This document shows, piece after piece, positions 4,146-54,145 of a stretch of 64,000 nucleotides of DNA. Origin of the DNA: Candidatus Thorarchaeota archaeon (GTDB lineage: Archaea > Asgardarchaeota > Thorarchaeia > Thorarchaeales > Thorarchaeaceae); contig JAWOEX010000035.1 of the NCBI GenBank assembly GCA_046482545.1, positions 32,001 to 96,000 on the forward strand, written 5' to 3'. The translations under genes and the position numbers were made by a program. Below the pieces are notes generated by a model. That model had not been told where the DNA came from. It made no database searches and saw nothing but the letters and a program-made list of their open reading frames with translations. Every line of letters starts with the position of its first letter. The stretch's first letter is position 1.

Positions 4146-4319
4146 TCCCTGATGACCGTTTTCGATAAAATGAAGAGTATTCAGCAATAAGTGCATAGAC
4201 TGCATTTTGTTATCATTTGCTGCTAGGAACAAATACTTCGTTGGTTGTATGAGTGAGTCATATCACTCATCTCTATGGCTTCCCAAGAACTAGCATATGT
4301 TCCGCGGTGAGTCAATTAG

Positions 4320-4440
4320 TGCGGAGGGCGAGATTTGAACTCGCGGACTCCTACGAGATTATCCTCAGTTGAGGGAATTTGTACCTCAGCCAATTTGGAT
4401 CCTAAGTCCAACGCCTTTGGCCTGGCTTGGCAACCTCCGC
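4320..4440 (-). tRNA. tRNA-Leu(TAG) with 36-nt BHB intron at 43/44 (intron 4359-4394)
   Basis: Acceptor GCGGAGG/CCTCCGC, anticodon arm TTGGA-CTTAGGA-TCCAA, T-loop TTCAAAT; central helix ATCC/GGAT with AAA and AAT bulges. Confidence 0.93.
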
Positions 4441-24729: not shown

Positions 24730-25755
24730 TTGCAAGAGTCGTTTGTATTTCTAAGTGGAGAGAACCAATCTCTTGGAAGAAATGAAGTAGAAGCACTATT
24801 AGAAATGCGAGGGGGAACACCAGATATTTCGTGGTTTGGCAGACTAGGAATTTTTGAGGGCGAGGAAAGTCAAACCAAGTTTCTCCGAAATCGAGCTGCG
24901 ATGATCAAGCATAATGGGGTAGTCATCGCCAAAGTCAAAGAGTTTGCTGAAGGAATCGAGCAGATTCCAAAATCGGTAATAGAATCCGTGATTGGGGCTG
25001 ATGAATCATTCCGCATAAGAACACACTCGCTGGATTGGAAAAGCAACATGAAGGTAAGAAAGGAGCTTACTACTCTTCTTGGTGATAGGATACAAGACGT
25101 GACAGGAGCAAATGTGTCCTTGGACAACCCAGACGTGGAATTTCGACTGTTTTTGGTGAAGGGCATGACCATTGTCTGCAAATCTATGAAGTCCATTTTG
25201 CGGCGGCATCTTGTTAAGAAACAGCCTCAAAGACTAGTCTCATTTCATCCTTCAGTTATGAACGCGTTAGTAGCAAGGGCGATGTGCAATCTGGCCCAGC
25301 TCAAGAAGAATGAGATGATGGTTGATCCGTATTGTGGTATAGGAGGAATACTTTTTGAAGCATCACAAATAGGGGCCAATGTCGTGGGGATGGACATCGA
25401 ATGGCTACGTTTACGAGGAGCCGTGAAGAACCTCTCTAGTTTGAAAAATGCAAAATTCAACATCATCCAAGGGGATGCTCAATTCATCCCTGTCAGAGGA
25501 TGTGACAAAATTATTACTGATCCACCATATGGTCGAGCCAGCTCGACATATGGAGCTGAAGCTGAAAATCTTGTCTCTTCGCTATTCGAACAGATACCTA
25601 AGATTCTTGCCGAGGACGGTAAAGCCTGTGTTTGTAGTAGTAGCGAAATGCAGCTAGGTGAGCTAGCCGAGAAAAGAGGTTTGTCTATTGAAAGAAAGGT
25701 CAGTATCAGGGTTCACCGTAGCTTGACTAGAGAAATAGTTGTACTAAAGAGCTAA
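24730..25755 (+). CDS. trm11: tRNA G10 N2-methyltransferase (THUMP + MTase; Trm11/TrmG10)
   Basis: LSGEN, DPYCGIGG, TDPPYG, VHRSLTR. Confidence 0.88.
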   Translation: MQESFVFLSGENQSLGRNEVEALLEMRGGTPDISWFGRLGIFEGEESQTKFLRNRAAMIKHNGVVIAKVKEFAEGIEQIPKSVIESVIGADESFRIRTHSLDWKSNMKVRKELTTLLGDRIQDVTGANVSLDNPDVEFRLFLVKGMTIVCKSMKSILRRHLVKKQPQRLVSFHPSVMNALVARAMCNLAQLKKNEMMVDPYCGIGGILFEASQIGANVVGMDIEWLRLRGAVKNLSSLKNAKFNIIQGDAQFIPVRGCDKIITDPPYGRASSTYGAEAENLVSSLFEQIPKILAEDGKACVCSSSEMQLGELAEKRGLSIERKVSIRVHRSLTREIVVLKS

Positions 25756-27556: not shown

Positions 27557-27661
27557 TGGTGGGCCGGGCGTGACTTGAACACGCGGTCTCATGCACCCCA
27601 AGCATGAATCAGTTTGGCCACCTGATAATATCAGGTAGATACCAAGCTAGACTACCGACCC
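27557..27661 (-). tRNA. tRNA-Pro(GGG), CCA encoded, with 28-nt BHB intron at 21/22 (intron 27612-27639)
   Basis: Anticodon arm CATGC-TTGGGGT-GCATG, T-arm CGTG-TTCAAGT-CACG; central helix TTGG/CCAA with TAT and ACT bulges. Confidence 0.93.
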
Positions 27662-40334: not shown

Positions 40335-41462
40335 ATGTCTTCCAAGGAGCTTTCAGTGAAATTCTGGCAGGGCAACAAAGCTTGTGCTGAAGGGGCTATC
40401 TCTGCAGGATGTCGTTTTTTCTCTGGATATCCGATAACTCCTGCATCTGAAATTGCAGAAATAATGTCAGAGAGGCTTCCAGAAGAGGGTGGAGTATATC
40501 TTCAGATGGAAGATGAAATAGGCGCAATATCAGCGATAATTGGCGCGTCTTGGGGCGGAAGAATGTCAATGACAGCTACTTCAGGCCCCGGATTCAGTCT
40601 GATGCAAGAAAATCTAGGATATGCAATGATGACAGAGACGCCATGCGTTCTGGTAGATGTCCAGAGAGCAGGACCAAGTACCGGACAAGCTACTAAAGCG
40701 GCCCAAGGAGATTTAATGCAATCTAGGTGGGGTACGCATGGGGATCATGAGAGTATCGTCCTAGCCCCCAATTCGGCACAGGAGATGTATGAGCTTACCA
40801 TTCGGGCATTTGAAATTGCTGAAAAGGTAAGGCACCCAGTAATTGTGTTGTCAGATGAGGTAGTTGCACATTCTAGAGAAAGGGTACAGATTGACAATAC
40901 GATAGATAGGAGAGTATCACGAAAAATAGCCAAGAAAGGCGTTCTACCTTATGGAGAAGTAGATGATACAGGTCACTCAATTATGCCGAGATTTGGAGAT
41001 GGCCATAAACTGCTCATAACGGGATCAACTCATGATAGAGAGGGATTCAGGGAAACTGCAAATCCAGAGGTTCATGATGATTTGGTTCGTCGAATAACTA
41101 TGAAAATCAAAGATAGTTCTGAATTTCTAAAGGATGTAATTATCTCCGGACCCGAGACAGCAGAGTGGGGTATAATTTCGTTTGGATGTACTTCCAGAAC
41201 GGTAGAGCAAGTAATGGCAGAGAACGGGGAACAGGTTTCAATGAAATCTTTGAGGCTTAGGACAGTTTGGCCTTTTCCTGATGATGAAATGCTCGAATTT
41301 GCGTCCACTGTAGAGCACCTATTAGTTCCTGAGCTAAACTTAGGACAATTGAGTCGGGAAGTGTCACGAGCTGTTAAGGGGGTAGTGGATGTCGTTCCTT
41401 TGCGGAAAATTGGTGGAGGACGTGTAATAGAGCCGTCTGAGATAGTGGATATAGTGTCCTGA
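40335..41462 (+). CDS. korA: 2-oxoacid:ferredoxin oxidoreductase alpha subunit
   Basis: GNKACAEGA, GYPITPASE, QMEDE, TATSGPG, PELN.GQ; start re-set to 40335 because the upstream extension is IS end sequence. Confidence 0.92.
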   Translation: MSSKELSVKFWQGNKACAEGAISAGCRFFSGYPITPASEIAEIMSERLPEEGGVYLQMEDEIGAISAIIGASWGGRMSMTATSGPGFSLMQENLGYAMMTETPCVLVDVQRAGPSTGQATKAAQGDLMQSRWGTHGDHESIVLAPNSAQEMYELTIRAFEIAEKVRHPVIVLSDEVVAHSRERVQIDNTIDRRVSRKIAKKGVLPYGEVDDTGHSIMPRFGDGHKLLITGSTHDREGFRETANPEVHDDLVRRITMKIKDSSEFLKDVIISGPETAEWGIISFGCTSRTVEQVMAENGEQVSMKSLRLRTVWPFPDDEMLEFASTVEHLLVPELNLGQLSREVSRAVKGVVDVVPLRKIGGGRVIEPSEIVDIVS

Positions 41463-43741
41463 GTGCCCGTATAGGATGGTTCGGCTGCAGATTCGATATC
41501 CAAACCAGCAATGGCAATATATGTCTCCATCCATATGAATACTTGCGTAGAAATTGTCTGATTAAGTCGATAAGGATGACTGATATTGAGTAGAAGTTGA
41601 TGGTTACCTGGAGAAATATGAAGTGGTAATCTGATTTCAACTGTAGGAGTCTGGGTCAGATTCTTGAAGATGTTAGTTGCAATGTTTACACCTTCAATTT
41701 CTGCAGATAGATACACTTCGGATATACTAGTGTTATCATAACCAGCCGCTAGCAAATCAAATGATAGATTGTCGTCATACTTAGCATGTAATCCGGAAAG
41801 ACTTGCATTCATTCTCCCCAATACAATTAGTGTGAAATATACAGGGGCTTTGAATTTGCAGCTGGTATTTAGTGAATGATAATGGATTCTATGGGGGCCT
41901 AGAGGTGTGTCGATTGGTATATTGAAACTCAGATTGGTTGCCGAATTCATATGAACTTTGACGGATAGATTACAATCAATATCATAATTTTTTAGTTCAA
42001 CATTGATAGAAGCATTTGTTGATTCGGAAGTTACGAGGAAAGTGAAGAATGAGCTTGAATTTCGTAGAGACTCTGTAGAGCTATTTTGTAGCTGAAACTC
42101 TAGTGAATGGTAGAGTTGGATTGTATGCCAGTAGATTCCTTCTTCGGAGTATTGTGCGGGGGAAGCTGCCAATTGAAAGCAGAAGTCATATGAATCCGCA
42201 GAGTAGGATGAGCCAATCATCCATCTCAGGGTAGCGTTTCCATCTAAATCAGTAGACACCGTAGTCAAAGGATTGTTTAGATGGTCTGTTACGGTAATAT
42301 CAATATTAGATAAGGGCATATTGGACGGGTCTAGAACTGTCGTATTCATTACTATCTCGCTGTCCAAAAATGCTTGTGATGTATTATCTGTTCTAATGGA
42401 GGGAAGGAAGTAGGTGCTGAATCGATAGGAAAATGTATCATGCGCATAGTATATTGATTCATTAGAAGTGATACAAAGCGAGCTTGATCCCCACAGGGTT
42501 TTGGAAATTGAGAAATTATAGCGCAGAATTCCAAATTCATTTGTATGCAAGAGGGGTGTAGACATCGAATGGTTGTTGATTTTGAATTCTAAGAAAAGGG
42601 CATGGTTGCCAATGTTTTCATTGGCTACTGTATCCCGAATAGATAGGACGAAATCAGCACTCTTTCCTGCGATGGGTGTCTCTTCTAGTGAGACGTTGAA
42701 GTCTATAGGCCTACGTTCAGCTGTTATCATAAGTGTAGTATTTACGGGCTTGTACCGAAGGTTTGTGGCAGAGATATTAACCACATAGTTGCCAGGAGGT
42801 GCTTCGAATGGAATGGAGCAATTGTACATTCCATTTTGAAGTGCATTCATTGTTCCATTTGAAAAGGCAGTCCTCCATGTGAGTAGACTATCATTAATTG
42901 CATCGTTTCTTCCGTTTGTATGCTTAACGACTATGTCAGCAGAATCAGAATGCATTTTATCCGAAGACTGACAATAAACTGATGGGTCTGCTGATATTGT
43001 GGTAAGTGAGGAATTAGCAGGCAAAATAGTTACAGTGAACCAATCAGAAAAAGGTTCGAAGGAATCAGTGCCGTTGCTTTCCAGTGACAGGTTGTAATTT
43101 CCTGTTGGAAGAAAGGTATTATTGAGATTGAAATCAATTTGACCGGTACCATTTATGCAAGGAATCCAGTTGCTAACACATTGATTACCAGAGTCATGTA
43201 GTTTCGCCGAGACTGGTAGACCTTCCTGAAATATGTCTTGGTTATATCTAGAACCCAATCTGAATACAAATGTATGATTTAATCCATACTCAAATTCGAG
43301 AGGGGTGATTGGCGTGGCCAATAGCCGCCCTCGAGTAATATTGACTTGAATAGTCTCGCTTTCTCCATGGGTATATTTGTCATACATTTCGACATTGAAC
43401 ATGGCATGTCCACTGCTACCATTCACACCCGGGGAAATGGTGTCGGGAGTCAATAGACAAGATGATTGGAGTATTCTAGGTTCAGGAGAGGGAGGAATAA
43501 AATATGCGTCTTGATAAATCAATTCTGAAATCGTAGATACCGAAAATGAAACATGACACCATCCATCGCTTCCGAAATCTGCAGTAAGCTTGGCTGCCAT
43601 TTCAATTGTCTCTCCCACTTCGTAATCCAACTGGTCTGTCTGGAAGTAGTCCATTTGAAAATAGAAGGCTGATACAGGCATGATAAAAGCTAGAAGCAGG
43701 AGTGAAGAAACTTGAAGGGATAATACTATCTTGGATTGCAT
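41072..43741 (-). CDS. Secreted beta-rich (Ig-like repeat) surface glycoprotein
   Basis: Signal peptide (..PVSA|F), many NxS/T sequons, T(D/N)xxG repeats; the last ~130 codons overlap korA antisense. Confidence 0.7.
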   Translation of the reverse strand: MQSKIVLSLQVSSLLLLAFIMPVSAFYFQMDYFQTDQLDYEVGETIEMAAKLTADFGSDGWCHVSFSVSTISELIYQDAYFIPPSPEPRILQSSCLLTPDTISPGVNGSSGHAMFNVEMYDKYTHGESETIQVNITRGRLLATPITPLEFEYGLNHTFVFRLGSRYNQDIFQEGLPVSAKLHDSGNQCVSNWIPCINGTGQIDFNLNNTFLPTGNYNLSLESNGTDSFEPFSDWFTVTILPANSSLTTISADPSVYCQSSDKMHSDSADIVVKHTNGRNDAINDSLLTWRTAFSNGTMNALQNGMYNCSIPFEAPPGNYVVNISATNLRYKPVNTTLMITAERRPIDFNVSLEETPIAGKSADFVLSIRDTVANENIGNHALFLEFKINNHSMSTPLLHTNEFGILRYNFSISKTLWGSSSLCITSNESIYYAHDTFSYRFSTYFLPSIRTDNTSQAFLDSEIVMNTTVLDPSNMPLSNIDITVTDHLNNPLTTVSTDLDGNATLRWMIGSSYSADSYDFCFQLAASPAQYSEEGIYWHTIQLYHSLEFQLQNSSTESLRNSSSFFTFLVTSESTNASINVELKNYDIDCNLSVKVHMNSATNLSFNIPIDTPLGPHRIHYHSLNTSCKFKAPVYFTLIVLGRMNASLSGLHAKYDDNLSFDLLAAGYDNTSISEVYLSAEIEGVNIATNIFKNLTQTPTVEIRLPLHISPGNHQLLLNISHPYRLNQTISTQVFIWMETYIAIAGLDIESAAEPSYTGTQDTISTISDGSITRPPPIFRKGTTSTTPLTARDTSRLNCPKFSSGTNRCSTVDANSSISSSGKGQTVLSLKDFIETCSPFSAITCSTVLEVHPNEIIPHSAVSGPEIITSFRNSELSLIFIVIRRTKSS

Positions 43742-43856
43742 TATGTCACCTGTACTTGGTTTGTGTGCTCTCTAAAAAAGGCCACAAGCTGCTAACGACA
43801 AGTTTAATTCAGACCTCTAGGAGGAGTATTTGTCTCGATAATGGAGAGCTCTAGAA

Positions 43857-44222
43857 ATGGTTGTCAAACTTGAAAATGCCGTTATTGAATCGATGGAGGA
43901 AACTGAAACAAAGAATCTAAGGCTCTTAGAGATAACCTCAGAGGGCGGGAATGCAAGGTTGAGTCTTGAATTGCCAGAAGTGCTTTGTGAGACACTTGAC
44001 CAAGAGAAACCGATAGATGTACATATATCACCTAGAGAAACGAAAAAAGGAAGCCGGTCAAATATCTATGCCAAAGGCACGATTTTTAAGCTAGAAGACG
44101 AAGAAGAATTGAGAGTGGTAGGTTCCATTGGGGGTTTGAGACTGGTGGTTAGCATTGAGGATGCATCTTCAACTGAGAAGAGATCGTTTGAATCAGGAGA
44201 ATTTTACATAGCGATTTCATGA
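43857..44222 (+). CDS. rpo8: RNA polymerase subunit Rpo8 (RpoG/RPB8-like OB fold)
   Basis: 121 aa, YAKGTIFK...GSIGGLRL pattern of RPB8. Confidence 0.7.
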   Translation: MVVKLENAVIESMEETETKNLRLLEITSEGGNARLSLELPEVLCETLDQEKPIDVHISPRETKKGSRSNIYAKGTIFKLEDEEELRVVGSIGGLRLVVSIEDASSTEKRSFESGEFYIAIS

Positions 44223-44501
44223 TAATGCAGATGGAAAACAACAAGTAGCAAATATTCAGAGTAATTTACATTTTTCTGGTTCTTCATTTGAGTCCCTTCA
44301 ATTTGAAAGCAATTGCTAAGAATAGAGAAGCCGTCTGTGAGGGAAATACTTTCGGGTTACCCTCTTTCCCAGTAGGCCGTCTTTGACTGGTCTTTAACAA
44401 GTAGGTATATGCCTGAACGTATAATTCATCACATTATCCATACATAGAAGTTGTGAAAGCAAAAAGGGAATACAGTCAACTGGAACTAATCGGGAATTAT
44501 A

Positions 44502-45527
44502 TTGACAGACAAATCAGATAGTTCATATCAAGAACTTCTTGGCACTTGTCCTGATTGCTCTGGCACTCTCGGAACAAGTGAGGGTTACATCGTCTGTCTG
44601 AACTGTGGATTGGTAGTATCGAGGAAATACGTGAGTCCTTCCTATCAGATGGGACAACAGAAGTCCGATGACAGTCCTGATGCAGCAATGTATGTATCTC
44701 TAGGAAATAGAATGCATATAGTGGATGGGCTGGGAAGCTATATCGGCTTTCATAGAAACAAGTATTTCCGTGACTCAAAAGGAAGTGCTTTGCCAGGAAA
44801 GCTCCAGAAAAAATTCCACCGATTGAAGAGTGTGTATAGTACTAGAATCAGAATAGGTGACGATGAAGCCAAGTATCGAGCATTGAGAACACTGAATCGG
44901 GTTTCAAAGCTACTGATGATAAATGAACAGGTGCGAAATCGAACTGCTTACTTGTATAAGAAACTGATTACTGAAGCAAAGAACAAAATGACTAACAACA
45001 TCATTTTGATGGCAGTCTGCCTTCTTATGGCCGTTAGAGAATTCAAAGAGTGCGCCCCCATAACACTTGAGGAAATAGCAGAGACTTTTGAGAAATGTGG
45101 ACATAGAGTGAGTGTTCGAACCATAGTCAGAGAAGCAATTGACCTTCGCTCAGCGACAGGTTATGCTCCAAGGATTCGAAAACCCAGAGAATATGTACCG
45201 AGAATCCTTTCCATGTTAATGAATGACTCAGAGGTAATTTGGAGGCTCCAATCAAGAGGGTGGGAATTAAAGGAATATAAGAACAAATTGAGCAAAATTC
45301 TAATGAAAATTCTGAGAGGTTTTCCGTCTTCACGAAGAGGGGGTAGAGATCCGTTTATTTTTGCCGTTTCTGCAGCCTATGCAGCGGACAGAATCATAGC
45401 TATCAAAGTAGGAAAACAGGCAGTATTGACACAGAAACTCACTTCTAAAGCAACCGATGTGGCAGAGTATAGTATTCGGGATCATTTTGGAGTGATTAAA
45501 AAGTGTATCAGGATTACCAGCAAGTGA
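44502..45527 (+). CDS. Divergent TFB/TFIIB-family protein
   Basis: Zn ribbon CPDC..CLNCGLV, two cyclin-like repeats (ITLEEIA; GRDP..FAVSAAY..TQK...DVAEYSIR). Confidence 0.8.
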   Translation: MTDKSDSSYQELLGTCPDCSGTLGTSEGYIVCLNCGLVVSRKYVSPSYQMGQQKSDDSPDAAMYVSLGNRMHIVDGLGSYIGFHRNKYFRDSKGSALPGKLQKKFHRLKSVYSTRIRIGDDEAKYRALRTLNRVSKLLMINEQVRNRTAYLYKKLITEAKNKMTNNIILMAVCLLMAVREFKECAPITLEEIAETFEKCGHRVSVRTIVREAIDLRSATGYAPRIRKPREYVPRILSMLMNDSEVIWRLQSRGWELKEYKNKLSKILMKILRGFPSSRRGGRDPFIFAVSAAYAADRIIAIKVGKQAVLTQKLTSKATDVAEYSIRDHFGVIKKCIRITSK

Positions 45528-45676
45528 ACGTATCGTTCGGCGATTATACCCCACTAGGGGAACTGTCCCAAACGGACATGTGGGCCTTAAATCTGTTACC
45601 AAAAATCGATAATGGAAACTATGATTGACTCTCATATCCGAGAACCCAATTGGTTCATATCTTGATGTGAAAAGGA

Positions 45677-47347
45677 ATGGGCATTGAATCATACAACAAG
45701 AAAAGAATAGGAAGAAGTAGGTATGATGTAGTATTCCTAGAATGCCCTGAGGCTCGTTGTGTTGACTGTGAGAAGTACACAAGAGATAAGTGTGAAATTC
45801 TTACCCAGTGGCAAGAACAGACAGAACGTGACTCCCAATTAGTGATAATGGAAACGAGAAGGGGCTATATCCATCTTGCTCCGTCAGATAGGAAGCATGC
45901 GGCGAAGCCGCCATGGTTCACAGAAGGGTGGGGCTCGGTATATTTGGGGGATGGATTAAGACTATCTTCATCAGACATTGTGGAGATATATCGAGTAGGG
46001 CCTTATCTCGTATATTTCTCTGTGAATAATCATAACAAGATGCCGGTCCATCATGCAATACCTATGCTAAGAACACCTCTTGAGCATTCATTGTTTGAGG
46101 AGGTTTGTATGCGATTTCCATCCATGGAGAGAAAGTTCTCCTTCAAGCGAGAAGGATTAAATGAACGCCTAAGTAACAAAAAGGATGTCATCCTCGAAGA
46201 TCTTTCCGAAATCATTCCCGAGATGAATGAAGACACAAAAACTCGAATGTCCAAAATTGTTGCTCATCGCAAATCCGTTTTAGCACCTCTGTTTCCCTTG
46301 TTGTTTGATGAGGAAATTGAAGAAATCTATCTGAGCAGACCAGGCTCTCACATATACTTTGACCATCGTCGATTAGGGCGGTGTGAGACGAAGGTTACTT
46401 TTGACAAAAATGATGTGAGTCGGTTCATGACGTTAGTGCGTGCTGAGAGCAACTTCCATCTTGATTATGATAATCCATCGTTGAAGACTGAAATGGAGTT
46501 CGCAGATGTTCTTCTTAGGATATCAGCTACTATTCCCCCATTAAGTCCTGATGGGCTTTCGCTGGAAATCAGGCGAGCACGTTCAAAGCCCTTTACTATT
46601 GTGGATCTTTTGAAGAATGGAACACTGACCATGGAAATCGCCGCATTGTTGGTATCTGCTGCAAATGCTAGAACAAACATAACAATTACTGGAGAACCAG
46701 GAAGTGGAAAGACCACACTGTTGAACGCCCTTGATATGATGACACCTTCCCGATGGCGGAAACTCTACATAGAAGATGCTATTGAAAGTCGACTCTGGAG
46801 TGGCCACAAGCAGACAAGAATTAGGGTTCCTCCCTATGACGAAGGAGAGAGAAAATTGAGTAAGACAAATGAAATTGTGAAATGCCTTCATCGTTCTCCA
46901 GACTACGTGATTCTTGGAGAAATTCAAACAGCTGAACATAGCGCTGCTCTATTCCAAGCTATTGCAGCTGGGCTTCGAACAATGCAGACCTGCCACAGCC
47001 GAAATTCATCATGTTTGATATCCCGCTGGAGAGATTCCCATGGTATTAGTGAACATGAGATTGCACTTATGGATTTGATAATTACAATGAAACAAAGGGA
47101 ACCGGGAATTTCATATCGATATGTTGCAGAAGTTGCAAGAGTTCATCGTAGAAGGGAAAAGGGTTTGATACTCTTTGACGGTTTGAATATTATCTATGAA
47201 AAAGACGGTGAATCCGATTGCAGGAATATACTCAATTCCAATGAGAGGGAGCGTACTGTTACAGCTACTGCTTCAATGGAAGATGAGCTCGAAGTATTGG
47301 TAGATGGTTATCTTCGTAACTGGCCAAGGACGCTCCAAGAACTATAA
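45677..47347 (+). CDS. Type II/IV secretion (VirB11/TadA/ArlI-like) assembly ATPase
   Basis: RISATIPP, Walker A GEPGSGKT, Asp box IEDAIE, SPDYVILGEI, TCH. Confidence 0.85.
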   Translation: MGIESYNKKRIGRSRYDVVFLECPEARCVDCEKYTRDKCEILTQWQEQTERDSQLVIMETRRGYIHLAPSDRKHAAKPPWFTEGWGSVYLGDGLRLSSSDIVEIYRVGPYLVYFSVNNHNKMPVHHAIPMLRTPLEHSLFEEVCMRFPSMERKFSFKREGLNERLSNKKDVILEDLSEIIPEMNEDTKTRMSKIVAHRKSVLAPLFPLLFDEEIEEIYLSRPGSHIYFDHRRLGRCETKVTFDKNDVSRFMTLVRAESNFHLDYDNPSLKTEMEFADVLLRISATIPPLSPDGLSLEIRRARSKPFTIVDLLKNGTLTMEIAALLVSAANARTNITITGEPGSGKTTLLNALDMMTPSRWRKLYIEDAIESRLWSGHKQTRIRVPPYDEGERKLSKTNEIVKCLHRSPDYVILGEIQTAEHSAALFQAIAAGLRTMQTCHSRNSSCLISRWRDSHGISEHEIALMDLIITMKQREPGISYRYVAEVARVHRRREKGLILFDGLNIIYEKDGESDCRNILNSNERERTVTATASMEDELEVLVDGYLRNWPRTLQEL

Positions 47348-47474
47348 GTTGTAAGGAACTCTGTCTAAGGGGGATTATCAGCATGGGGGTATTCTGGGAT
47401 ATTGGGACAGTAATCGTCTTTTCTCAGTTGGGTTAAAATAGCAAATCGATAATCTTCTATCGAGGATATTGATA

Positions 47475-47681
47475 ATGACACAGAATAGCAACCCTCTGAA
47501 AGATAGTAGAGGCGGTCCACTTGTTGAAGAAAGTCTTTTGTTGGGAATAGCGGTAGTTACAGTCTCTATTGTAATTGCTGTTGTGCTTCAAGCTACTGGG
47601 TGGGCGCAGGATGTCATTTCAGAGCTTCTTGGTTTATTAGAAGACAGCTGGAGCAATCTTTCAGAGTTACTGAATCCTTGA
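47475..47681 (+). CDS. Small Flp/type IV pilin-like protein
   Basis: KDSRG|GPLVEESLLLGIAVVTVSIVIAVV: basic-Gly cleavage site, Glu at +5, hydrophobic helix. Confidence 0.65.
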   Translation: MTQNSNPLKDSRGGPLVEESLLLGIAVVTVSIVIAVVLQATGWAQDVISELLGLLEDSWSNLSELLNP

Positions 47682-47940
47682 CAACGGAAAGATGGTATGG
47701 CAGTAATCAAGCATATCCTTTGCTTTAATCCTGTTATTCTTTGTTTGACTTCAAATCTATTTTCCAGTTAGCTGTAAACTAGACTTGAGCTATTCATTAC
47801 GATAATGATGTTGCACAGATATCCTAGCTCAGCTCACCCAATATGCTGCTCTTGAGAGAGATCTTGAAAAGGAAGTCCCCTTGAGAAAGGCTTATTTGAG
47901 TTGTGAATGGTGCTGACCCGCTCCAAGCTGGTGCAAAGAG

Positions 47941-48050
47941 GCTCCGGTAGAAGTCGAAGGTGTTTACCTTGTGACTATCGAATGTAGTCCGGCCCAGCAT
48001 GGGGGACTCTCGATCCCCCGACCCGGGTTCAAGTCCCGGCCGGAGCACCA
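47941..48050 (+). tRNA. tRNA-Glu(CTC), CCA encoded, with 32-nt BHB intron at 10/11 (intron 47951-47982)
   Basis: Acceptor GCTCCGG/CCGGAGC, anticodon arm GGGGA-CTCTCGA-TCCCC; central helix CGGT/ATCG with AGA and AAT bulges. Confidence 0.93.
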
Positions 48051-48057
48051 ATTATTT

Positions 48058-50154
48058 CTATCCAATGAGATACTTTCTCCTGAGAGGAGGCAATAACACT
48101 AGTGAGAATGAGGAAACTATAGACAAAGCAAGGGGAAGCAAACCAACGCCACTCGAATTAGTAATGTCAAGAGAAGTTACCTCAATTTGGAGGATGCCAT
48201 AATAAGCTTGGATTCCTGAAGTAGAAGCTATATGGTATTGCAAGGTGTATGTACCAGGGAGAGTAGGGATGCGTAGTGAGAGTTCCAATATGCCACCAGA
48301 AATGGTTTGTGTGCTATGATTCTGACCTAGCCAGTTATAACTGGCCTGTAGTCCTTCAATTGTAGTTCCATTAAGAGCAACTAGCAATATGTTAACGGAA
48401 ATATGTTTTTCCAAAGGCTTTGTCTTAAATGTGACAGATTTGGGAACAATCGGTATAGTGTAGGAAGTATTAATGACAAATCTTCGTGTCCTTTGAAAGA
48501 CAAAGGCGGACTTATTTCCTTGATAGTATAGCGCCACGGAATGCTGACCTTCGCATTTCGGAATCTGAATGCTGACAGAAACCTCACCTCGCTTATTGCT
48601 ACGAGAAGCACCGTATTCTTTATCATTCACTAGTATCTGGATGTTTTTGTGGATGATTGGACCATAGAAATCAGTCAATGAGACGACAAACGACACGGTC
48701 TGACCGGGAATTGCGTAACCCATTGTACTACAATACAAGAAATCGAATTCAGGCTGAGACCAAACACATATCTGAAGAGGGCAGGTACGATTCTCCAAAT
48801 AGGGTGTATTACTAACGATAAGCAAGAGGTTTCTATATCCTAGTGGCTTTGTCGGAACTATAATGAAGAAATATTTTCCATTTTCTCCTGAGACTCCGGT
48901 GGAGTTTTCTCTTGAAATTGGATCGGTTATGAATACATTTTCAGCCTTAGCTGAACGATTCAGAAGATCGTAGATTGTTACGGTTAGTGTATTGGGTCTA
49001 TTAATGGTTAAGGAATTGTTTTCAGTAACTCTGATAAAACAGGGACTAGATATTATGATTTGTCTGGATAGGTTGGATGCATCATAACGTTCACTTCCAG
49101 AGTAGCGAATATTCATTGTATGTGGACCTAGCGCAAATGATTCGTTGAAGTGGATATGTAAGAGAACTGTTCCGGAATTGTTGGTCGATAATGTCTCATG
49201 GAGTTCATTATCAAAATCGACTTCAATAATTGCATTTCTTAGCAGTTCGTCTCCTGATGAAAGAGTGACAGATACATCTAGAGATGCATTTAGTGTACTA
49301 TGGATTGTTTCATCTTCAGAGATATCAATCTGAGTTGGCTTCTTTTCTAGTATGAACTCAACAGACGTTTGACTAGATTGGAAATACTGTGTAGAGTTTC
49401 CATCAAAGACTATGTCGAGTTGATTATAACCAAGCTCTGCCCAAGATTGATTACATGACAAAATAAATTGGAATAGGCCATTATTGTCAGTTAAACCTGA
49501 TTCAACTACTTCTCCGCTGCTCACGAGTTTGATTTGTTGAGAACTCAGGGGATATCCTGTGTCATCTATTAGACTCACAGACATATTGAACATATCATGA
49601 GGGTGTAACCGAGTATCGTGAATATTTGTTGTGATATTAGTAGATGATAGCACAGTCATGATTATCCATTGTGCTGAAGGTGATAGTCCTAAGGATTCAT
49701 TGCCTCGAAAAGTTATGTTTAGGGTAGTCTCTCCAATGGGATGGATAAAGGGGATTTGCCATTCAATGGATGCAAAACCTGTCTCGTCTGTCTTTGAGGA
49801 GCCGATGTAATAATCATATGTTTCATCAAAGAACTCAACATTTTGATTGGGAACAGGATCGCCATAGGTCCCATTTTGAAGAAGGTAGCATTCTATGGTA
49901 ATCGTCTCCCCCCGAGCGAAGGCTGGGTTTTCATTTCCCGAGACTAGGTCCGAGTTATGTGAAATCAAGATACAAAGGGATATGACCATTATAAGAACAA
50001 TAATTCGCTCTAACAAATCTAGATTTATGCTGGGCTTGCAAGGTTTGTTTTCAAACATATTCACTTTTCGACCCAGATTATGGTTTGTAGATGGTCTATT
50101 AACCTCGTATAATGTAACCTGACTCCATTGGCAGCTACTTGTGAATATGTACAA
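48058..50154 (-). CDS. Membrane-anchored Ig-like repeat surface protein
   Basis: N-terminal hydrophobic segment, repeated TDxxG...F/Y.G...Y units, C-terminal TM + RRK; true start probably downstream (~50058). Confidence 0.72.
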   Translation of the reverse strand: MYIFTSSCQWSQVTLYEVNRPSTNHNLGRKVNMFENKPCKPSINLDLLERIIVLIMVISLCILISHNSDLVSGNENPAFARGETITIECYLLQNGTYGDPVPNQNVEFFDETYDYYIGSSKTDETGFASIEWQIPFIHPIGETTLNITFRGNESLGLSPSAQWIIMTVLSSTNITTNIHDTRLHPHDMFNMSVSLIDDTGYPLSSQQIKLVSSGEVVESGLTDNNGLFQFILSCNQSWAELGYNQLDIVFDGNSTQYFQSSQTSVEFILEKKPTQIDISEDETIHSTLNASLDVSVTLSSGDELLRNAIIEVDFDNELHETLSTNNSGTVLLHIHFNESFALGPHTMNIRYSGSERYDASNLSRQIIISSPCFIRVTENNSLTINRPNTLTVTIYDLLNRSAKAENVFITDPISRENSTGVSGENGKYFFIIVPTKPLGYRNLLLIVSNTPYLENRTCPLQICVWSQPEFDFLYCSTMGYAIPGQTVSFVVSLTDFYGPIIHKNIQILVNDKEYGASRSNKRGEVSVSIQIPKCEGQHSVALYYQGNKSAFVFQRTRRFVINTSYTIPIVPKSVTFKTKPLEKHISVNILLVALNGTTIEGLQASYNWLGQNHSTQTISGGILELSLRIPTLPGTYTLQYHIASTSGIQAYYGILQIEVTSLDITNSSGVGLLPLALSIVSSFSLVLLPPLRRKYLIG

Positions 50155-50425
50155 ATACTGGACTTGGGGACAGCAGTGAAATCATCTCTGAAGAAAATGA
50201 TGGTTTAATCTCGTGAAAGAAGGGTATTACCTCAAAGTATGATTGATTCTTGTCATCTTCTAAAGGGAACTGGCGGGCAGTACGGTTCTTTCTCAAAATC
50301 ATTTGGTGACTTCATATTATGTAGTACTGCACATCCATACGGTTCGTTGATGGACATAGCTTGTAAACAACGGAGAGAAAAGGAAATGCAGATGGTTCTG
50401 AAAGCCTTGTGGGGTATCTTAAGAT

Positions 50426-53400
50426 ATGTATGTTAAGTTTTCAAAGTTGCTTAGGATTGCATGGCTAAGTTTAACCATATTTTCATTATTTTACTTTGTA
50501 ATCGCCTACGTTTTACCAATCATGGGCATGTTGCCGCTAGTAGTAGTTCCCATAAGATTTGTAATTGAGAGCCTTCTTCTTATATTGCCACCAATAACGG
50601 GAATCATTGTGGTAGGATTCAAAATCAAATCTCAGAAAGTATCAATTTCCATAGATGATGATATGTTTGCTGTACGATTGGATCAGGATATTGTGGCAAC
50701 TTGTGTTCTCCAGCTTAATTCTGTTGCCGGCTCTGTACATATAGATGAGAGCGGAGAATGCTCGTATGTAAAATCAGCACTTCTCGCTCTGCGTGAGGGG
50801 ATGGGAAATGATACAGCTATAGCCTACGAAGTAGGAACCATTAATCAACAACCCTTCATCCGCTTATTCATAACTGCACATGGGAATTCCATTGCAAGCT
50901 TGCGGCAGCATCTCCAGATTGAAGCTACGAGGTCAGAAGCCATCCTGCGAAGCACACTCAATACGGTTGAGATAGAAAGATTGGAAGGCGTGGAACTGAG
51001 GAAAGCTATTGAAACCATGCGAGATGGGAACTGTGGTGTATCAGGTCGAGGAGGAAATGACGCAGGAAAAGTATGCCAGAAAACAATTGCTATCAATGGC
51101 GAGCCAAGTATTAATTCTAGTGATGAAGCTACCCAGATAGGAACATTCCTAGTAGGCCTTCTAAGACAAGGGTACAATGCAAGTCTAACTTGTACATTTA
51201 GACCTTCAAGTTCTGGACGCGAAAAGGGAGTATTAGAAAAACAGTGGAGAAATATTCGCAGAAAGGAGCTTGAAAAGCGAGAGTCATTATCTGACCATGC
51301 TATGAAAAGAAAACTGCTGGAGGAATATCAAGAAATAGGCAATATTGACGCGTGGTTTCAAGCAAGCATCTATGTAACAATGGAAGCTGCTTCTGAGCAT
51401 GAGCTAAGACTTGTCGAAGAGGGAGTTAGTGGACTCGTAATGTCAATATGGGGTGAAAAGGGGACTCTGTCACTTGAATCAGTGAGGTTGGGGAAGAGAA
51501 ACTACTATCGGATATTAAGCAGACGGGGAGTGACAAGTATGAGGATCCATTTGAACAGACTTGTTGCCTATTTCAATACACCTGCCCAACAGCTCCCAGT
51601 AATAACAGGAAAGGCCGCCCCTCACTTTGCAATTCCAGAGAGAGAGGTTATTGATAATGAGTTAGTCGTTGGAAAGGCGGTATTCAATTCTCGATGTCTT
51701 GGTGACGTGGGTCTGAAAAAGGATTGGTTGCGAGAGCATATAGCTGTTATGGGCGCAACGGGTACTGGAAAGACCACGTTAGTGAAAAGACTAGTAACAC
51801 AGCTTAGCATTAAAACAGAAGTACCATGGTTGGTATTCGATGTAAAAGGCTCTGAATATGTTGATCTTCAGAATGCGGAGGTGGGCCCCATTACGGTTTT
51901 AGTTCCTGGCGCTGAAGATGATTTTGTGCTCAACTTGTTTACACCAGAAGGGGATGATCCTGAAAGACATGCGCACATAACTTTCGCGATAATTAGGGAA
52001 CTCCTGAATGAAAGAGATATCTCTGCTGAGCTTTCACCGGCAATGGAAAAGCTTTTGCGAGAAGCCGTAGAGAAGGTCGTTTTGGAAAAAGAAGAAAAAA
52101 CGGCAAGTTCTCTTGAACAGGTCATCGATGATGAAATCAATAATAATCGCATTTCCGAAATGACAAGAGACGCATTATTGAATCGACTTCAAGTTCTATT
52201 TAGGGAGCCACTGGCTACAGTTTTTGGTGCTGGAGAAAGAACATTGGAGATTTCAACTATACTGGATCAAAGAGTGATTCTGGACTTGAGTTATGTAGCT
52301 CGAATTGGAGGCATGGAAGCAGCAAGGCTCCTCTACAATGTTATTGTGAAAAGAGTCTTTGATTCAGCCATGCAAAGAGGGATAATGGAGGGGCTTCAAC
52401 ATGTAGTGGTACTTGAAGAAGCTTACAATCTAGTACCTGAGAGTTACACGAGAAATTCAGCCGCGGACATTACAACAGGAGAATCCATGGTAATGCTTCA
52501 AAGGGCAACAGGCCAAGGAGTTGTTGTTGTTTCAACTAGGCCAAATATATCGTCAAATATCTTAGCCAATACCTCTACAAAAATCACTTTTAGATTGCCG
52601 TATGATAGCGCTGTTGGTAGAAGATATCTTTCTTTAGATGACAGGCAAGAGGAATATCTACAGTCACTTGACGTCGGAAATGCGTTGATTAAACTACCAG
52701 ATGTTAGTGTTTTCGAAATCAAGACGTTATTGCCGGAATATCAGGAAAAGCCAATAGCAAGTGCTCAAGAGGTAAAAAGTGAAGAAGTCTGTGAAGTTGA
52801 TGTTTACGCTACTGAAGCTGTATCTCATGGAGTGGGAGAGGAAGTCTGCGAAGAGAGAGAAGAGGGGTCCATAAGAAAGGACCATATCCTAGGTGAGATA
52901 TCTGGATTGGTAACAGGATATGTTGCATCTCGCGATTTTGTAACACAGAAGCAGTTGGATCAATTTTTGGCAAGTTTCAACTGCAATGATATTAACATGA
53001 CGCGGAGTGAATTATTCGATGAGCTCATATCACTCTCCATTATTCAGAGAGAAGCATTACCAATTGTTGATGGCGGTTTTGTGTTTTCAGTGGCAGGGAA
53101 CACCAATCAGTCGATAAAGGCAGCAATATCACAATACATATTGGAAAAATCAGAGAATATACAGAAGTTTGAACACGACGGTTCAGAAGGGTCACCTGAT
53201 TTCGTTGTGGGAAGCAATGCTATTCTGATAGTTCCTGAGCGAATTAGAATACAATCGATTGAGCAGACGGTTGGAGCTATTAGAAATTGCATGATGAAAG
53301 TAGGTAACGCAATAGACAAACTATTTGTAATAGTAAGAGGGAGCATTGCTGCTGCGAAGGTTCGAGAAAGGATTGAGAATATTGATGGCTTTGATTTGGT

Positions 53401-54145
53401 AACCATAGTGCCGGCGTTTCAGAGTTCAATTGATAGAATGATTAGTACATGTACAGAATCTCAAACATCTAACGAGGGTTCGACCAGAACAAGAAACCAT
53501 GAAATTACTTCAGCTTTGGAAGAGCTCAATGGTGATATTGATGAATCCGCTGGAAGACTAGGTAAACGGGTATGGTTTGGATTATTGCGTGACTTTCTTT
53601 CTGTCTCGGGAGGATCAATTCGATGGAGTGATTTTCTTAGTTTCATTAATACAACAGCCATTCAATCGAAGAAGTCGCGTTCTGTTCCATTATCCAAAAA
53701 CGGAGGTTTGCAAGCTCTCATAGAGATGGTTGAGGAAGAACAATGCCATCTGTTTAGAGGGGGCAAAGATGTCGGTCTATCTGATTTGGGACCTGGTCTT
53801 TGGGTTCTTGGACCAATGGACTTCCAAAGCATTAGATCTGAGGCTTTAGATGTAATTAAGGAGAAGCTAGAAAGTATTGAGGGAGAAATATCCTTGAATC
53901 ATTATCCTTTTGACTTCTGTCTGGGAGATAAATCATATGCAATATTGCCTGAAAAAGATAGACTTGAACTGATAATTGATTGTCAGTCTGGAGTTGCCTG
54001 TAATTCATGCCAGTCACATGAAGCTATATGCATCTTAGGAGATTTACGCATTGTAAATGAGAAAACTGTTATACCCGGTAATGTCGTTATCAGATTGTGG
54101 GAAGAAGGTGTTTCCTCTATTCTTGATCGCCTTATTCATGGTTGA
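50426..54145 (+). CDS. Large membrane-anchored VirB4/HerA-FtsK superfamily ATPase
   Basis: Two N-terminal TM helices, HIAVMGATGTGKT, VFDVKGSEY, VLEEAYNL, STRP, NTSTKITFRL, ~450-aa C-terminal extension. Confidence 0.8.
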   Translation: MYVKFSKLLRIAWLSLTIFSLFYFVIAYVLPIMGMLPLVVVPIRFVIESLLLILPPITGIIVVGFKIKSQKVSISIDDDMFAVRLDQDIVATCVLQLNSVAGSVHIDESGECSYVKSALLALREGMGNDTAIAYEVGTINQQPFIRLFITAHGNSIASLRQHLQIEATRSEAILRSTLNTVEIERLEGVELRKAIETMRDGNCGVSGRGGNDAGKVCQKTIAINGEPSINSSDEATQIGTFLVGLLRQGYNASLTCTFRPSSSGREKGVLEKQWRNIRRKELEKRESLSDHAMKRKLLEEYQEIGNIDAWFQASIYVTMEAASEHELRLVEEGVSGLVMSIWGEKGTLSLESVRLGKRNYYRILSRRGVTSMRIHLNRLVAYFNTPAQQLPVITGKAAPHFAIPEREVIDNELVVGKAVFNSRCLGDVGLKKDWLREHIAVMGATGTGKTTLVKRLVTQLSIKTEVPWLVFDVKGSEYVDLQNAEVGPITVLVPGAEDDFVLNLFTPEGDDPERHAHITFAIIRELLNERDISAELSPAMEKLLREAVEKVVLEKEEKTASSLEQVIDDEINNNRISEMTRDALLNRLQVLFREPLATVFGAGERTLEISTILDQRVILDLSYVARIGGMEAARLLYNVIVKRVFDSAMQRGIMEGLQHVVVLEEAYNLVPESYTRNSAADITTGESMVMLQRATGQGVVVVSTRPNISSNILANTSTKITFRLPYDSAVGRRYLSLDDRQEEYLQSLDVGNALIKLPDVSVFEIKTLLPEYQEKPIASAQEVKSEEVCEVDVYATEAVSHGVGEEVCEEREEGSIRKDHILGEISGLVTGYVASRDFVTQKQLDQFLASFNCNDINMTRSELFDELISLSIIQREALPIVDGGFVFSVAGNTNQSIKAAISQYILEKSENIQKFEHDGSEGSPDFVVGSNAILIVPERIRIQSIEQTVGAIRNCMMKVGNAIDKLFVIVRGSIAAAKVRERIENIDGFDLVTIVPAFQSSIDRMISTCTESQTSNEGSTRTRNHEITSALEELNGDIDESAGRLGKRVWFGLLRDFLSVSGGSIRWSDFLSFINTTAIQSKKSRSVPLSKNGGLQALIEMVEEEQCHLFRGGKDVGLSDLGPGLWVLGPMDFQSIRSEALDVIKEKLESIEGEISLNHYPFDFCLGDKSYAILPEKDRLELIIDCQSGVACNSCQSHEAICILGDLRIVNEKTVIPGNVVIRLWEEGVSSILDRLIHG

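Follow-up and report, generated by a model that had tools for sequence, protein, structure and literature searches.

A conserved 5′ leader copy of the tRNA 5′ end probably makes an intron at position 10/11 of Thorarchaeota tRNA-Glu(CTC) spliceable

The tRNA-Glu(CTC) gene of this Thorarchaeota genome is interrupted at position 10/11 by a short BHB intron, and comparative data together with predicted folds suggest that a conserved decoy in its 5′ leader, which imperfectly repeats the start of the tRNA, probably makes this intron spliceable. The gene lies in the 64,000-nucleotide stretch of DNA analysed here (the window), in which we read the following features from the sequence.

47885–47898, + strand: putative BRE and TATA box, GAAAGG-CTTATTTG, whose spacing predicts a start at or next to 47920
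47920–47931, + strand: leader decoy GCTCCAAGCTGG, a degenerate copy of the tRNA 5′ end (12-nt family consensus GCTCCGGACTGG)
47932–47940, + strand: variable spacer that separates the leader decoy from mature G1 (decoy-to-G1 distance 19–25 nt in the family)
47941–47950, + strand: 5′ exon of tRNA-Glu(CTC), nt 1–10, of which nt 5–8 are the 5′ strand of the BHB central helix
47951–47982, + strand: intron at 10/11, 32 nt, with a hairpin core, the ATCG strand (47977–47980) and the AA bulge (47981–47982)
47983–48050, + strand: 3′ exon, nt 11–76 of tRNA-Glu(CTC), 68 nt, with the encoded CCA at its end
48009–48011, + strand: anticodon CTC
48023–48039, + strand: T arm
48040–48046, + strand: acceptor 3′ strand

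The first-pass annotation had proposed a 32-nt insert after G10, leaving a 5′ exon of only 10 nt, and a splice motif with a CGGT/ATCG central helix between 3-nt bulges. All of this is found in the sequence: CGGT (47945–47948) pairs with ATCG, including one G-U pair, the bulges read AG|A and AA|T, with a cut expected after the second base of each, and the intron-side helix of AGTC with GACT is in register. Nucleotides 1–4 of the 5′ exon provide the exon-side helix strand and nt 9–10 are two bases of the 5′ bulge; in this genome the exon-side helix carries one bulged U, and the full hBHBh′ is obtained in a constrained fold. Once the insert is removed, a normal cloverleaf of 78 nt including the CCA is restored. 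Its 5′ end, which the same annotation had expected to be normal after cutting, is identical to that of the intron-less family orthologues L009 and L013, and matches that of the genome's own intron-less Glu(TTC) gene save for base 3 and one D-loop base. We rejected a split or permuted tRNA, as the exons are collinear, 32 nt apart and share one promoter.

A T-arm census and two targeted searches of the genome, which is 98.9% complete, identified this gene as its sole tRNA-Glu(CTC); they returned no second copy, including the intron-less one whose discovery the first-pass annotation had named as counter-evidence. The Glu(TTC) gene is intact and has no intron. ARAGORN called no tRNA in the window; its intron search miscalled the gene as Arg, and a relaxed-score run produced noise. 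Judging by its sequence, the gene is probably functional and carries a non-canonical BHB intron at 10/11, in agreement with everything that could be tested; this intron would be removed by EndA cleavage and ligation.

The gene is flanked by a 556-aa P-loop ATPase gene on one side and a convergent 698-aa gene on the opposite strand on the other (window 41072–54145), a neighbourhood that also holds a TFB-like gene and a 1239-aa ATPase gene, all named by eye from translations. Other tRNA genes of this genome are interrupted as well. Within the window, Pro(TGG) has a D-loop insert (about 27557–27661, − strand; missed by ARAGORN at its default score) and Leu(TAG) an intron (about 4319–4440, − strand). 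Elsewhere, Arg(CCG) and Arg(GCG) have the same insert, ~32 nt long, in the D loop (G000 C26:212423–212972), and D-arm inserts occur in Asp, His, Pro(CGG) and Ser(CGA) tRNAs.

Using a pattern for the interrupted 5′ end, we detected the intron in 67 of 86 Thorarchaeota-family genomes, spanning 13 genera (65 of 86 with a stricter pattern), and in none of 314 genomes of other Asgard archaea when searching with a Glu/Asp-type pattern only. These orthologues fix the register of the junction. All four central-helix pairs form in 67/67 loci at 10/11 and in 0/67 at 8/9, 9/10 or 11/12, registers that could yield the same mature sequence and are thereby ruled out. The first h′ pair forms in 49 of the 67, so that many orthologous motifs are relaxed. 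Introns measure 26–36 nt across the family and always keep an RYCG end (ACCG, GCCG, ATCG or GTCG at intron positions −6 to −3). Their cores are divergent, with 66 distinct sequences among the 67 loci and a median pairwise score of 0.38. The predicted intron hairpin has a median z of −3.7 (−2.7 in this genome), lying below −2 in 59/67 loci. The exons are nearly invariant; where orthologues differ in the anticodon stem, compensatory changes are seen.

Glu(CTC) genes without the intron occur in genera g4, g12 and g16 and in one genome of g8 (G024). On an RpoB tree this distribution takes four changes, the outgroup, a sister-family genome, having neither intron nor leader copy. G024 is nested inside a well-supported intron-bearing clade; the backbone of the tree lacks resolution, and its starred branches force only two changes. 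The most probable history is a single gain at the family base followed by some three losses, accompanied by decay of the decoy. One genome, G077, contains three different copies of the gene and is probably a mixed bin.

The genome encodes machinery suited to such an intron. One of its two EndA genes, alpha, shows the catalytic residues Tyr/His/Lys and best matches the alpha subunit of A. pernix; it carries the crenarchaea-specific loop, in which lysine K42 aligns to A. pernix K44. This loop and its lysine confer cleavage of non-canonical introns (PMC3241643). The product of the second gene resembles a structural beta subunit, suggesting an (alpha-beta)2 heterotetramer. RtcB and RNase P RNA are both encoded. 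A gene for a Trm11/TrmG10-like methyltransferase is present in the window (24745–25746, + strand; TIGR01177, E 3.6e-67, below the family cut-off), and the earlier suggestion that G10 methylation is blocked until splicing is a plausible one.

All 67 intron-bearing loci have the leader copy, with 0–3 mismatches; at the level of sequence comparison, the intron, its register and its co-occurrence with the copy are established. The copy is invariant at positions 1–3 and varies at positions 4, 6 and 7, and in this genome it starts 21 nt upstream of G1. A conserved CTTATYT box precedes it by 29–33 nt, counted from the first base of the box, in the intron-bearing orthologues, and the base directly before it is a pyrimidine in 65/67 loci. 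Ordinary archaeal promoter spacing would place the start of transcription about at the leader copy. From the distance to the TATA box and the pyrimidine-purine step, we infer that transcription starts at or next to the copy, here at 47920. Where the intron is absent, the motif has 2–7 mismatches and pairs more weakly, and in g4 it is also 3 nt closer to the TATA box; this weakened g4 copy is still predicted to compete. The duplex between leader and nt 66–72 is typically worth about −14 kcal/mol in genes with the intron, −13.2 to −6.4 kcal/mol in nine intron-less Glu(CTC) loci and a mean of −5.6 kcal/mol in Glu(TTC) paralogues. The decoy of this genome is among the weakest (5/7). Among 29 tRNA genes of the genome, two (Asp and Val-CAC) are preceded by a 6/7 match, which is about what chance gives, so the decoy is not demonstrable from this genome alone. 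The Asp case (G000 C28, about 146970–147040, − strand) is a chance-compatible copy of the 5′ heptamer 39 nt upstream of the gene.

We computed folds from the leader motif to the CCA for the 67 loci. Leader motif positions 1–5(7) are predicted to pair with the acceptor 3′ strand, nt 66–72, at a mean P of 0.96, and leader (G)CTGG with D-arm CCAG(C) at a mean P of 0.58. The overall shape mimics a cloverleaf, and the true acceptor stem has a P of 0.003. Two further candidate pairings were discarded: the leader as a splint on the D loop (AGTCCGG) for the exon helix has a P of about 0.003, against 0.96 for nt 66–72, and pairing of leader CTGG with the T stem is minor (mean 0.13). The competition between splice motif and acceptor stem that the first-pass annotation had anticipated is evident in the predictions. 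Without the leader, the acceptor stem dominates, at a median P of 0.98, leaving the central helix at a median P of about 0.02 (0.016), with some loci reaching up to 0.75; with the leader, the median for the central helix is 0.89. Part of this effect is unspecific, since a shuffled motif (median 0.35) or replacement of the first 7 nt (0.56) rescues the helix partially. The leader lowers the cost of forming the central helix in 66/67 loci. Here it is 1.6 kcal/mol with the leader vs 4.3 without, and the central helix of this genome has a P of 0.07 even with the leader. No compensatory covariation is seen, because the decoy, acceptor and D-arm columns hardly vary.

After splicing in silico, the decoy fold is still preferred by ViennaRNA, with a P of about 0.01 for the native acceptor stem. 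Splicing reduces the gap between decoy and native folds from a median of 8.0 to 5.6 kcal/mol (lower in 59/67 loci; here from 3.1 to 1.5). Release of the decoy would thus need tertiary contacts, modifications or irreversible RNase P cleavage, all of which lie outside the model.

The association of intron and leader copy recurs outside Thorarchaeota. A scan across all genomes also gave matches in Bathyarchaeia. Among 401 genomes of Bathyarchaeia, 16 tRNA-Glu(TTC) genes have a 16–19-nt intron at 10/11, and all 16 have GCTCCG(G/A) 13–33 nt upstream; the central helix is predicted at a median P of 0.93 with the leader and 0.03 without. Two of 18 pattern matches (L185, L202) fell outside tRNAs by chance and were dropped, and L165, a Thorarchaeota g6-like gene on a 504-bp contig labelled Bathyarchaeota, was excluded as probably mis-binned. 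In eight of these Glu(TTC) genes (L186–L191, L197, L198) there are apparently three to four inserts, at 10/11 and in the D loop, anticodon region and T arm. In three others (L192, L193, L201) the 3′ acceptor strand is, as read by eye, interrupted too: an extra insert at ~70/71 has CCCG:CGGG as its central helix, so that both acceptor strands would be tied up in splice motifs.

In Freyarchaeia, a Thr(CGT) gene with an 8/9 intron listed in the part of PMC11291895 Supp. Data 4 that we compared (L211, G215:C1 about 1545250–1545425) also has a leader copy, complementary to nt 66–75 at the tRNA 3′ end; the central helix has a P of 0.36 with this leader vs 0.02 without. An Atabeyarchaeia His gene with an intron at 13/14, where the helix is clear of the acceptor strand, has no leader copy. 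These two cases serve as one positive and one negative control, not as a survey. We lean somewhat towards a general rule, in which introns that consume the acceptor strand (~8/9 to 10/11) would persist only with a 5′ decoy copy, a folding switch that orders EndA before RNase P. Such a switch would have evolved, probably convergently, in Thorarchaeota, Bathyarchaeia and Freyarchaeia and would decay on loss of the intron.

On balance, we consider it likely that the functional tRNA-Glu(CUC) gene contains a BHB intron at 10/11 that can be spliced through the decoy strand of its own leader. The transcript would start at or next to the leader copy. The splice motif would be built from nt 1–10, the intron and nt 11–17, with exon nt 5–8 pairing with the RYCG end of the intron and nt 1–4 with the start of the 3′ exon to give hBHBh′. 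Since this motif consumes the whole 5′ acceptor strand, the leader copy would take the orphaned nt 66–72 and CUGG the D-arm CCAG. Prediction and comparative evidence point to a resulting cloverleaf mimic with the splice motif looped out and the true acceptor stem blocked; the decoy probably also keeps RNase P from a premature cut at G1. An (alpha-beta)2 EndA, consistent with the genes present and with known chemistry, would then cut after G10 and before U11, and RtcB would ligate the exons. In the last and weakest step, the D arm would be restored, the true 5′ strand would displace the decoy and RNase P would remove the 21-nt leader.

The main alternative, which we regard as rather unlikely, is that the BHB forms unaided, co-transcriptionally or through breathing, and that the leader copy mainly restrains RNase P, protects the 3′ end or orders processing. 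The BHB region is indeed transcribed before the 3′ acceptor strand exists, in some loci the central helix forms fairly readily with no leader (P up to 0.75), and the persistence of the decoy fold after splicing in the model also counts in favour of this view. However, at equilibrium the acceptor stem wins in most loci when the leader is removed, and the copy goes with introns that have a central helix overlapping nt 1–7, being absent at 13/14. The two roles can also coexist, the copy both aiding splicing and acting on RNase P.

Another reading takes the upstream copy as the true 5′ end and the intervening 21 nt as a second, acceptor-stem intron. The direct repeat, the position of the upstream copy at the expected transcript start and the invariance of its positions 1–3 would fit, as would the 5/6 register, which gives three of four central pairs in 57/67 Thorarchaeota and 14/16 Bathyarchaeia loci. 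Those pairs, however, arise from the GC step itself, and the register would also require an untranscribed base. A full central helix, as expected for a 3/4-type acceptor-stem BHB intron between the two copies, forms in at most 2/67 loci in any register from 1/2 to 7/8. Covariation with the 3′ strand is seen for the downstream copy (C3-G70 in G006) and not for the upstream one, the upstream copy is variable at positions 4, 6 and 7, and RNase P RNA is encoded, all of which makes this reading improbable.

There is a still smaller chance that the upstream copy is a functionless scar that intron insertion left behind, through target-site duplication or slippage. tRNA genes are frequent integration sites, and the copy does directly repeat the first tRNA bases, but a scar would hardly be kept at 0–3 mismatches over 13 genera while the spacer and the intron core diverged, be weakened where the intron is absent, or recur in Bathyarchaeia and Freyarchaeia at different distances. 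Least credible of all is that the gene is a disrupted pseudogene whose transcript stays unspliced, tRNA-Glu(UUC) reading the GAG codons. The intact Glu(TTC) gene speaks for this; against it stand the nearly invariant exons, the compensatory anticodon-stem changes, the conserved promoter, the central helix in every one of the 67 loci and the hairpin in 59 of them.

The arrangement of hairpin intron, leader and decoy can be compared with several known systems. The short hairpin intron, the 3-4-3 motif and the expected removal by EndA and RtcB resemble what the text of PMC4090602 describes for archaea with (alpha-beta)2 EndA, such as Thermoproteales, and the crenarchaea-specific loop likens the Thorarchaeota enzyme to the broad-specificity EndA of PMC3241643. 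In split and permuted tRNAs (Nanoarchaeum, Caldivirga, Thermofilum; PMC3218864, PMC3978253) flanking transcript likewise helps to build a processable fold. There, however, the leader lies within the BHB and is cut off by EndA, whereas the Thorarchaeota leader lies outside it and imitates the 5′ strand of the tRNA itself, and its removal would fall to RNase P. BHB introns are also spliced in the D stem in Cyanidioschyzon merolae, but by a eukaryotic enzyme and with no decoy reported in the text consulted (PMC3728597).

Position 10/11 is, as first suggested, not among the commonly reported sites in the sources compared. The text of PMC4090602 names 20/21, 22/23, 25/26, 29/30, 30/31, 45/46, 53/54, 56/57 and 59/60 as well as an extreme 3/4, in a list ending in "etc." that does not name 10/11, and that text describes no leader decoy. 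Asgard tRNAs are rich in non-canonical introns, and those in the D arm often escape annotation, according to the portions consulted of PMC11291895 and bioRxiv 10.64898/2026.10.13.758758, which centre on Atabeyarchaeia, Freyarchaeia and Jordiarchaeia. "Thor", "Glu" and "leader" are absent from the main text of the latter. The tRNAscan-called rows compared in Supp. Data 4 of PMC11291895 do not contain 10/11, the nearest positions being 8/9, 13/14 and 14/15, and the leader copy of the Freyarchaeia Thr gene goes unremarked in that part of the table. Our literature searches returned no description of a leader decoy or of a 10/11 site; the position lists compared were those of these publications, and the intron position may be new.

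The 5′ leaders of tRNAs are usually seen as disposable, and here one seems to take the place of the acceptor strand for a time. This would explain how introns exist at sites whose bases are claimed by both the splice motif and the acceptor stem. For archaea, the system offers a direct in vitro test of whether splicing or RNase P cleavage comes first, in relatives of eukaryotes that include lineages with natural intron loss to serve as controls. In practical terms, it makes clear how annotation of Thorarchaeota genomes can overlook or miscall tRNA-Glu(CTC).
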